This document shows positions 465 through 1,181 of a stretch of DNA of 64,000 bases, in pieces; position 1 is the stretch's first letter; every line of letters begins with the position of its first letter. Under the pieces are notes generated by a model. That model was given only the letters and a program-made list of their open reading frames with translations. It did no database searches and was not told the origin of the DNA. The stretch is from Escherichia coli. Its GTDB lineage: Bacteria > Pseudomonadota > Gammaproteobacteria > Enterobacterales > Enterobacteriaceae. The DNA lies in assembly GCF_051903065.1 (NCBI RefSeq), contig NZ_CP178438.1; one strand, 5' to 3'. Position numbers and translations under genes: made by a program.

Positions 465-953
465 ATGAAACGTTTACATACCCTTATGTTATTTCTGGCG
501 GTTCTGTTCACGGGCTTTAACTTTAACGCAGAAGCGGCTACCGTAAAACAAGCTCTTAGTTGTAACCCAGAAGCCTGGGCTGAACAACCTGGAGCGTGTC
601 CATCAACGTACGAGTTGTACGAAGGTGACGCTACCTACAAAGCCGCTATCGACAAAGCATTAAAACCGGTCGGACTGAGCGGCATGTTCGGTAAAGGCGG
701 CTATATGGATGGCCCTGGTGGAGGTATCACGCCAGTAAACATTAACGGTACAGTCTGGTTCCAGGGCGACGGTTGCAAAGCCAATACCTGCGGCTGGGAC
801 TTTATCGTAACACTCTATAACCCAAAAACCCATGAAGTTGTTGGCTACCGTTACTTTGGTTTAGATGACCCGGCCTACCTGGTTTGGTTCGGTGAAATTG
901 GCGTGCATGAATTCGCGTATCTGGTGAAAAACTACGTAGCTGCGGTTAACTAA
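465..953 (+). CDS. Secreted periplasmic protein, possibly Ivy (inhibitor of vertebrate lysozyme) family
   Basis: ATG at 465 gives a signal peptide (MKRLHTLMLFLAVLFTGFNFNAEA); CKANTCG motif resembles the Ivy CKPHDCG loop. Track ORF extends in frame back to 162 (alternative start at 270 with a second signal-like segment), so the start is uncertain. Confidence 0.45.
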   Translation: MKRLHTLMLFLAVLFTGFNFNAEAATVKQALSCNPEAWAEQPGACPSTYELYEGDATYKAAIDKALKPVGLSGMFGKGGYMDGPGGGITPVNINGTVWFQGDGCKANTCGWDFIVTLYNPKTHEVVGYRYFGLDDPAYLVWFGEIGVHEFAYLVKNYVAAVN

Positions 954-968
954 TTTAAGGAGTCTATC

Positions 969-1181
969 ATGAAAACTTTTATCAAAACTTTACTCGTTGC
1001 TGTAACTATTCTGTTCTCTGTCTTCGCTACTGCGAAACAAGTAAAACTGCCAAATAACATCAAATACGTTAATACTACAGAAGCGTTTTCCTGTACCGAA
1101 ATTGACGGTATGAATTGCCAGACAAAGAATCAGTTCAACTATAAAGATAACAGCTATGTGGTGATGCTGCCAACTTACTGA
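969..1181 (+). CDS. Small secreted protein, 3' end replaced by IS1 terminal repeat
   Basis: AAGGAG RBS 7 nt upstream of ATG 969; N-terminal signal peptide. Last codons (VMLPTY*) are encoded by the IS1 left inverted repeat that starts at 1160, so the native C-terminus is lost. Confidence 0.45.
   Translation: MKTFIKTLLVAVTILFSVFATAKQVKLPNNIKYVNTTEAFSCTEIDGMNCQTKNQFNYKDNSYVVMLPTY

Follow-up and report, generated by a model that had tools for sequence, protein, structure and literature searches.

A decaying cassette of small secreted-protein genes in an Escherichia coli island, with a predicted member of the Ivy superfamily

What are two small secreted-protein genes next to a copy of the insertion sequence (IS) IS1, and how much of each is still a gene? 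The question is raised by positions 465 to 1,181 of a 64,000-nucleotide (nt) stretch of Escherichia coli DNA (RefSeq assembly GCF_051903065.1, contig NZ_CP178438.1; hereafter, the window). An initial annotation, made from the letters alone, had read this segment as a small operon at the edge of an island, in which an Ivy-like periplasmic protein gene (gene 1), preceded by an unusual in-frame 5' extension, is followed by a 70-residue secreted-protein gene (gene 2) with a strong ribosome-binding site, the last codons of which are replaced by the end of IS1. The open reading frames (ORFs), IS1, the ribosome-binding site, and the extension are indeed there; a 70-residue gene, a break in its last codons, and an island edge are not. 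The locus is a decaying cassette of small secreted-protein genes within a CP4-44-like integrative island at tRNA-Leu (leuX), and overall it is a case of ordinary gene decay surrounding one mildly interesting protein. The best explanation, which we hold to be probable, is that another gene left the 5' extension as a relic, that gene 2 is dead, and that gene 1 would encode a periplasmic inhibitor of a peptidoglycan glycosidase with the Ivy fold.

Gene 1 (465..953, + strand, stop codon included) encodes a pre-protein of 162 residues. Across diverged alleles it is under purifying selection, with a ratio of nonsynonymous to synonymous differences per site (pN/pS) of 0.2-0.34 and pS reaching 0.59; gene 2 likewise evolves as coding sequence, with pN/pS of 0.13-0.35. 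Because these ratios are low in both, the two are real genes and not chance ORFs. The predicted Sec signal peptide of gene 1, MKRLHTLMLFLAVLFTGFNFNAEA (465..536, +), would be cleaved after AEA and before the A that follows; on inspection the n-h-c pattern and the -3/-1 rule are satisfied, and the N-terminus is conserved throughout the homologues. Sec-type signal peptides can be recognized by inspection on the products of both genes, in agreement with the first description of them as secreted proteins.

The assignment of gene 1 to the Ivy superfamily comes from its relatives. An exhaustive search of 1.84 billion representative proteins with a narrow family profile (A3), itself built from 11 close homologues, found 58 at an expectation value (E) <= 0.001, 27 of these at E <= 1e-10, with full-length relatives at E 1e-21 to 1e-4. 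The Pfam Ivy model (PF08816) is matched by 27 of the 32 aligned family members, nearly all of them distant relatives from this search, and all ten distant relatives that were scanned singly exceed its 21-bit gathering cut-off. The extended profile in turn matches the Ivy crystal structures 1GPQ/1XS0 at 2e-12, as well as 1UUZ and 4PS6. When the narrow profile was compared by hhalign with an Ivy set (A8) composed of K-12 Ivy and 10 proteins above the Pfam cut-off, the probability was 99.7% (E 1.3e-25, 147 columns), in a register that places GCKANTCGW of gene 1 over ACKPHDCGS of K-12 Ivy/1GPQ. Furthermore, an AlphaFold model of the protein (predicted local distance difference test, pLDDT, 76; predicted template-modelling score, pTM, 0.73) was compared with the Protein Data Bank (PDB) by Foldseek, and ranks 1-8 are all Ivy chains (1uuz, 4ps6, 1xs0, 1gpq) at probability 0.97-1.00 and target-normalised TM-scores of 0.50-0.68; rank 9 falls to probability 0.11. 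Taken together, the profile-profile, transitive-profile, and fold evidence places the product of gene 1 in the Ivy superfamily, and support for the family, the lack of which would have spoken against the first reading, has thus been found.

Two of the distant profile homologues have architectures that are unusual for a periplasmic inhibitor fold: P0120 and P0130, in which the Ivy-like domain is fused to a caspase (Peptidase_C14) and to an N-terminal region with DnaJ and a zinc ribbon. Another relative, P0088 (L024:4001-4945, GCA_053164875.1), has 314 residues, with an Ivy-like N-terminal half and a Cys-containing C-terminal domain that recurs in P0089 and P0124. P0088 is the closest distant full-length relative of gene 1, and its gene lies directly upstream of DUF932, antirestriction, RadC, and CbeA/CbtA genes in another enterobacterial island. 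Given this shared position upstream of DUF932, the CP4-like island slot repeatedly holds Ivy-type cargo.

The part of gene 1 that corresponds to the inhibitory loop of Ivy lies at 774..791 (+), where, in alignment with 1GPQ/K-12 Ivy, the codons of the C-x4-C loop CKANTC (Cys104-Cys109) stand in the place of the Ivy loop CKPHDC. Both cysteines are nearly invariant (at least 90% conserved in the extended family alignment), and the sequence predicts a six-residue loop, closed by a Cys104-Cys109 disulfide, at the Ivy-equivalent position. The loop is CKANTC in the window and CKANAC, CKSNAC, CKSDAC, or CKAHAC in other alleles, the last being that of allele P0015, which keeps the His; in more distant relatives it is mostly C-E-[PA]-H-N-C. 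PMC4262234, citing Abergel 2007, describes the CKPHDC loop as essential for lysozyme inhibition by Ivy and strictly conserved in 30 family members. Ivy proteins are also reported to act on lytic transglycosylases, the inhibition being strong in Pseudomonas and weak in E. coli (PMC3660660, PMC10139938).

The company that gene 1 keeps connects it to jumbo phages. A tblastn search of 50,697 phage records with gene 1 gave no match; the link was reached by way of gene 2 and of a record that had been submitted as a plasmid. Homologues of gene 2 with 35-37% identity, signal peptide included, are found in Seoulvirus (SPN3US-like) jumbo phages of Salmonella, Escherichia, Erwinia, and Proteus, where the order is a 133-residue gene, a 163-residue gene, the 136-residue gene 2 homologue, genes of 127, 166, and 208 residues, and an SMC-like gene. 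A metagenome contig (L006) has the same order as the phages, again beside an SMC-like gene, with an Ivy-like gene in the second slot and a 202-residue protein that is 46-50% identical to Seoulvirus proteins. The full secreted-protein array is also present, beside an SMC-like gene, on p98232-contig_4 (NZ_CP173450.1; L020/L021), a circular 'plasmid' of 221,873 base pairs (bp) from the clinical E. coli isolate 98232, whose Ivy-like protein is 73% identical to that of the window and whose gene 2 homologue is 76% identical to the intact form. This record encodes an S80 phage prohead protease, thymidylate synthase (thyA), RNase H, a 2,377-residue SLT-domain protein, and a small SLT-domain protein, nearly all of its remaining genes being hypothetical. 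Although deposited as a plasmid, p98232-contig_4 by its gene content looks like a Seoulvirus-like jumbo-phage genome. The 163-residue protein in the Ivy slot of phage Lh1B was considered as a diverged Ivy and rejected (hhalign probability 0.15%).

What, then, might gene 1 do? In the model we favor, it would be translated from the ATG at 465 and its product exported to the periplasm by its own signal peptide. There the protein would fold as an Ivy-type alpha/beta domain with disulfides Cys33-Cys45 and Cys104-Cys109, and it would inhibit a peptidoglycan-cleaving glycosidase, either a lysozyme or a lytic transglycosylase, by insertion of the disulfide loop into the active-site cleft in the manner of Ivy. 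Since the CKANTC loop varies by allele and the gene is found on islands and jumbo phages, a phage or competitor target seems likelier than a hen-type lysozyme. The targets would thus be ranked, by our analysis, as a phage or competitor lysozyme or transglycosylase first, a host c-type lysozyme second, and a type VI muramidase effector third.

The second of these targets is that of a plain second Ivy, a periplasmic inhibitor of host c-type lysozyme that aids survival in animals. Homology, the Ivy fold, and a disulfide loop at the same position are compatible with such a role, as is the loop His of allele P0015, and Ivy itself contributes to lysozyme tolerance (PMC2267010, PMC3458809). However, the loop is CKANTC and not the essential, strictly conserved CKPHDC reported in PMC4262234, identity to K-12 Ivy is only ~18%, the K-12 chromosome already has ivy at the usual locus, and gene 1 is carried on islands and a jumbo phage rather than in the core genome. 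For these reasons, a second Ivy of the ordinary kind seems unlikely.

A more specific form of the phage target is that the Ivy-like protein is secreted into the periplasm and, in a role like that of T4 Spackle (PMC7650644, PMC7677548), blocks the virion SLT or lysozyme domain with which an incoming phage gets through the peptidoglycan, which would amount to superinfection exclusion when the gene is on a jumbo phage and to anti-phage defence when it is on an island. This idea arises because the gene resides in a 222-kilobase (kb) jumbo-phage genome together with two SLT-domain proteins, because the islands are rich in defence-like cargo, and because Ivy-type proteins inhibit lytic transglycosylases. 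If it were right, the variable center of the loop (N/H/D) would set target specificity. It is a speculative proposal, and we consider it rather unlikely.

The third target belongs to a different explanation, in which gene 1 would provide orphan immunity to a competitor's peptidoglycan-glycosidase toxin, for example a type VI muramidase effector, within an acquired periplasmic immunity array. The array has this appearance, consisting as it does of several small proteins with signal peptides that are present in some loci and missing from others, the loop residues vary among alleles, and known immunity proteins of glycosidase effectors also fill the substrate cleft (Tgi2, with Ivy, MliC, and PliG; PMC7650644). 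Against this, there is no effector, type VI secretion system, contact-dependent inhibition, or Rhs gene adjacent in the loci examined, PADLOC and Pfam are empty for the array members, and the clearest relatives of the array are in jumbo phages and not in toxin loci. A role in immunity is consequently judged quite unlikely, and an Ivy-type inhibitor directed at a phage or competitor enzyme is preferred.

Where does the protein begin? The frame upstream is open back to an ATG at 270 and holds a second signal-like segment, and the Prokaryotic Genome Annotation Pipeline (PGAP) annotates 270-953 as a single coding sequence of 227 residues, WP_000775505.1. The in-frame extension that had been remarked upon is therefore present, but it belongs to a neighboring gene to which gene 1 has been joined by a deletion. 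Alignment to L003:3098-3640 identifies 270..464 (+) as the first 65 codons (a signal peptide and ~44 mature residues) of a separate 180-residue secreted-protein gene. Elsewhere in E. coli (L003-L005), an intact copy of this 180-residue gene comes next after the patatin gene, and beyond it are a decayed gene of ~130 residues and the gene 1 homologue. At the DNA level, window positions 130-464 align colinearly with such a locus, from the terminator through the leader to about codon 62 of the intact 180-residue gene; after 464 there is a gap of 708 columns, and the alignment picks up just before ATGAAACGT of gene 1.

Could the 227-residue coding sequence nevertheless be the true gene, with its 65 N-terminal residues serving as a functional pro-region or membrane anchor? 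The frame is open in at least four alleles, PGAP calls a single coding sequence, a plausible signal peptide with the end ARA|G can be read in the segment, and the 90% cluster of the fused frame contains 1,706 sequences, a number from which it follows that the fused frame is an old, widespread allele. However, the segment has its homologue in the N-terminal part of the independent 180-residue gene, the rest of which is missing through a clean deletion of 708 columns, and its Shine-Dalgarno sequence has degraded to TGGAAA from the AAGGAG of the intact gene. Differences between haplotypes within the relic number 7 nonsynonymous to 0-1 synonymous, while the gene 1 core is constrained; by our own binomial estimate, a split of this kind has a p of roughly 0.03 if the relic is constrained like the core. 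The relic thus shows no coding constraint. Furthermore, the phage homologues and the diverged island homologues (58-81% identity, 160-161 residues) lack the segment and start at MKRL, the equivalent of window position 465. A functional pro-region or anchor is therefore thought very unlikely. The RefSeq 227-residue model is a chimera of a gene relic and a real gene, and the functional product of gene 1 probably starts at 465, as the homologues suggest.

The joint at 464 has a second aspect. Between loci (L015/L016) whose gene 1 cores reach a pS of 0.59, the relic differs at only 0-1 of 195 nt. Given such near-identity beside diverged cores, the deletion joint is also a mosaic boundary; the implication is that recombination has exchanged the alleles of the core and gene 2, with the conserved codons of the signal peptide as its anchor.

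Gene 2 has fared worse. Its ORF (969..1181, +) has 70 codons and starts 15 nt past gene 1, but the native protein, which was sought in other genomes and found uninterrupted, has 136 residues (WP_000846713.1) in strain 7/2 and in NCTC9699, the latter with flanking DNA that is 100% identical. The window is identical to these strains through 1159 and unrelated from 1160. What survives is thus native residues 1-64 (969..1159, +), comprising a 22-residue signal peptide and 42 mature residues, to which six codons and a stop, VMLPTY*, have been added from the left end of IS1. The replacement of the native C-terminus by IS1 is as first described, and no homologue ends in VMLPTY; the break, however, is at codon 64 of 136 and not within the last codons. 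Since all full-length homologues, down to 63% identity, have 136 residues and the match ends at 1159, 72 of 136 codons (53%) have been lost to IS1, including two of the four conserved cysteines. The 70-codon fusion ORF is a pseudogene and not a gene for a 70-residue secreted protein, and PGAP flags it as such ('incomplete; missing C-terminus'). The intact product is a secreted beta-rich protein of the phrog_8968 family, residues 1-131 of an intact homologue aligning with profile positions 1-133 of 135 at E 2.6e-45; structural similarity of the intact 136-residue protein to the MliC/PliC, PliG, and PliI inhibitor folds was looked for and not found.

Immediately past gene 2, or past gene 1 in loci that lack gene 2, there is a stub of seven codons, ATGCGTTTCTCTGCACATTATTAA (L002:5380-5410, L003:4495-4530). 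It is a remnant of the ~129-residue gene that comes next in the phage-type array, and the ~129-residue protein is a weak paralogue of gene 2 with a phrog_8968 match at E 8e-4.

How did IS1 come to lie within gene 2? IS1 is an element of 768 bp with terminal inverted repeats of ~23 bp and with insA and insB' joined by a frameshift. The copy at 1160..1927 (+) is complete, IS1A-like, and 768 bp in length; its terminal repeats were located, and PGAP annotates the transposase with a programmed frameshift. Its left inverted repeat, GGTGATGCTGCC, starts at the third base of codon 64 of gene 2 (position 1160), and both ends match with 0 mismatches. A second, inverted IS1 lies at 5375..6142 (-), and the two copies bracket a block of ~5 kb. 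The flanks of the first copy, AGCTATGT / CAGCTATGT on the left versus CACTTTTTG on the right, contain no target duplication, and none of 8-9 bp borders either copy of IS1 or the bracketed block as a whole. The joint is therefore a rearrangement. Among 5,426 complete genomes, the junction of IS1 with gene 2 occurs in one (a second record listed for it consists of two joined pieces), while the intact 3' half of gene 2 lies beside DUF932 in 2,322 complete genomes and is matched at >= 99% by more than 1,400 records.

The bracketed block contains, to the right of the first IS1, a 407-residue PD-(D/E)XK protein, a 178-residue protein, an IS630 remnant, a 281-residue protein, and the second IS1. For the PD-(D/E)XK protein (2217-3440; Pfam PDDEXK_4), PADLOC gives a match at E 7e-34 to its candidate defence family PDC-S26. 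The block is present in 33 complete E. coli genomes, always with the same IS1 and with differing DNA on the far side: the pheU integrase in E308, a TPR gene adjoining the pheV integrase in CFSAN061761, and an inverted arrangement in 23CRST027. From these differing outer flanks, the block behaves as a mobile or recombinogenic IS1 composite that carries a candidate defence gene. That one flank is constant and the other variable fits an adjacent deletion promoted by IS1 or recombination between IS1 copies, and either of these, rather than simple insertion, is the likeliest origin of the joint. The event itself is ordinary and specific to this strain lineage. An inversion between the IS1 copies of the pheU and leuX islands was considered and ruled out, pheU in the source genome being empty and followed by cadC; insertion of the bracketed block into gene 2 as a composite transposon was likewise ruled out, given no outer duplication and no 3' half in the window. 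That IS1 simply transposed into gene 2 in situ, with the rest of the gene beyond IS1 or beyond the block, is extremely unlikely, because although the element is complete and gene 2 breaks off cleanly where its terminal base begins, neither IS1 nor the block has an 8-9-bp duplication, the whole 64-kb window lacks the 3' half of gene 2, and the DNA to the right of IS1 is joined elsewhere to the pheU or pheV integrase regions.

These steps can be arranged into a history of the cassette. From the relatives, the ancestral order would have been the patatin gene and a terminator, the 180-residue secreted-protein gene, the ~130-residue gene, the Ivy-like gene, the 136-residue gene, the ~129-residue gene and a terminator, and then DUF932/antirestriction/yeeS-T/cbeA-cbtA. 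An old deletion of ~0.7 kb, now common in E. coli, would have removed most of the 180-residue gene and all of the ~130-residue gene, and the 65 initial codons that the former retained would thereby have been brought in frame with the Ivy-like start codon, which gave the 227-residue coding sequence. The Ivy-like gene itself (465-953) would have come through intact, and purifying selection acts on it. An IS1-mediated rearrangement confined to this strain lineage would have cut the 136-residue gene at codon 64, leaving the dead 70-codon fusion ORF and joining it to the IS1-bracketed block with its PD-(D/E)XK candidate defence gene.

Several observations weigh against this explanation. The label 'Ivy-like', supported by hhalign, transitive profiles, and the fold, receives nothing from the direct Pfam scan that had been proposed as its check: neither the 162-residue nor the 227-residue form matches a family at E <= 1, so that gene 1 itself falls below the PF08816 gathering threshold. 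A scan of NCBIfam and a phmmer search of the PDB with the gene 1 protein gave nothing significant, and with the narrow profile 1GPQ appears in the PDB at an E of only 1.4, behind a spurious mannanase; no significant match was found in PADLOC or PHROGs, nor did a literature search by the protein accession return anything. The AlphaFold model is moderately confident and was built on 11 close sequences. The CKPHDC motif with its central His is absent from the gene 1 of the window: the His has become Asn, and Pro and Asp are replaced too, and with the loss of all three, inhibition of c-type lysozyme may be lost as well. No peptidoglycan hydrolase gene, and hence no partner enzyme, lies beside gene 1 in the islands examined, nor is one adjacent in the neighborhoods of the distant homologues. 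A consensus scan of 178-465 found no sigma-70-like promoter on the + strand. A product started at 270 would have two hydrophobic segments, which could put the Ivy domain on the wrong side of the membrane. Finally, the 3' half of gene 2 may have been either deleted or relocated in the genome.

The setting of the locus bears on how common its contents are. Over bases 1-1159, the window has 100% identity with the E. coli chromosomes of GDSC2BY4G (NZ_CP136025.1) and NCTC9699 and ~99% with many other genomes, and DNA matching this part is present in 2,632 of the 5,426 complete E. coli genomes. In GDSC2BY4G the copy lies ~14 kb within an island that is integrated at leuX and adjoins yjgR-ahr. The genes of this island are, in order, an integrase, a phosphoethanolamine transferase, an outer membrane protein, IS5, a GTPase, a dynamin-family protein, an RdcB-family protein, a patatin-like phospholipase, and genes 1 and 2, followed by IS1, a run of IS elements, and cargo genes. 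Because the position is a joint between two island modules, it is not the island edge that had been proposed.

On the left of this joint, the 3' end of the patatin-like phospholipase gene (1..134, +; PGAP annotation of the identical record) closes a trio of dynamin, RdcB-like, and patatin genes. The upstream string (L010:14754-20134), consisting of the GTPase, a 794-residue dynamin-family protein, an RdcB/YjcZ-family protein, and the patatin-like phospholipase, is conserved and overlapping. PADLOC gives weak matches of the GTPase and the dynamin to LeoBC/LeoA and of the patatin protein to a phospholipase effector, and the string may be a dynamin-type defence-like module. On the right, past the second IS1 (window ~6264-13000; L010:26264-33000), are a YadA-like adhesin, IS110 and IS3 fragments, and a group II intron reverse transcriptase (ltrA); here the interior of the island has been heavily scrambled by IS elements.

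Transcription of the cassette appears to begin anew after the patatin gene. A consensus scan found a terminator-like hairpin at 154..178 (+), in which a 7-bp stem, CACCGCC/GGTGGTG, is followed by TTTTT; it is also present at the equivalent site in strain 7/2 and marks the start of a new transcription unit. In intact relatives, a terminator with a 13-bp stem follows the array. The Ivy-like and 136-residue genes remain adjacent, 11-15 nt apart, in loci that have diverged to 58-65% identity. The strong ribosome-binding site attributed to gene 2 can be read directly as the Shine-Dalgarno sequence AAGGAG (957..962, +), 6 nt before the ATG at 969. Spacing, here a gap of 15 nt, together with the conserved adjacency and the hairpins that bracket the unit in intact relatives, suggests that genes 1 and 2 are likely co-transcribed, which agrees with the small operon first postulated.

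The assignment gives a structural family and a testable function to the gene 1 family, until now called 'hypothetical protein', and it exposes an annotation error, the chimeric RefSeq model of 227 residues. It also reveals that E. coli islands and Seoulvirus-type jumbo phages have the same array of small secreted proteins, and this common array provides an entry point to the activity of jumbo phages in the host periplasm. The truncation by IS1 is routine and is relevant only to the annotation of one strain.

Comparison with known systems places these conclusions in context. The IS1 joint resembles adjacent deletion and IS1-IS1 recombination in having a complete IS1, one constant and one variable flank, and no target duplication; it differs in that the event is read here from its end product, to which a deletion, an inversion, or a replacement could alike have led. 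Intact gene 2 matches phrog_8968 from end to end and, with phrog_8968/phrog_5248, the small secreted proteins of Seoulvirus-type jumbo phages, has in common its synteny with the phage array and the SMC-like gene. The closest comparison for gene 1 is Ivy itself (E. coli YkfE; PF08816; 1GPQ, 1XS0, 1UUZ, 4PS6). Like Ivy, the gene 1 product is predicted to be a Sec-exported periplasmic protein of ~135-140 mature residues, with the same alpha/beta fold in its model and a six-residue disulfide loop that is followed by Gly and a beta-hairpin. Unlike Ivy, it goes unseen by the Pfam model; its identity to K-12 Ivy is only ~18%, its loop is without Pro-His-Asp, and it is carried by integrative islands and a jumbo phage instead of the core ivy locus. 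In addition, the N-terminal Cys-x11-Cys-Pro pair of gene 1 is present in a large subgroup of Pfam Ivy proteins and absent from E. coli Ivy. The other comparison is with T4 Spackle (gp61.3), a periplasmic inhibitor whose signal peptide is cleaved off and whose target, the tail lysozyme gp5, is a peptidoglycan hydrolase of the virion (PMC7650644, PMC7677548). The inhibition by Spackle is allosteric, in contrast to that by proteins of the Ivy type, which plug the cleft (PMC7650644). The likeness of Spackle to the gene 1 product, both being small, phage-borne, and provided with a signal peptide, is thus one of functional analogy only and not of sequence or fold.

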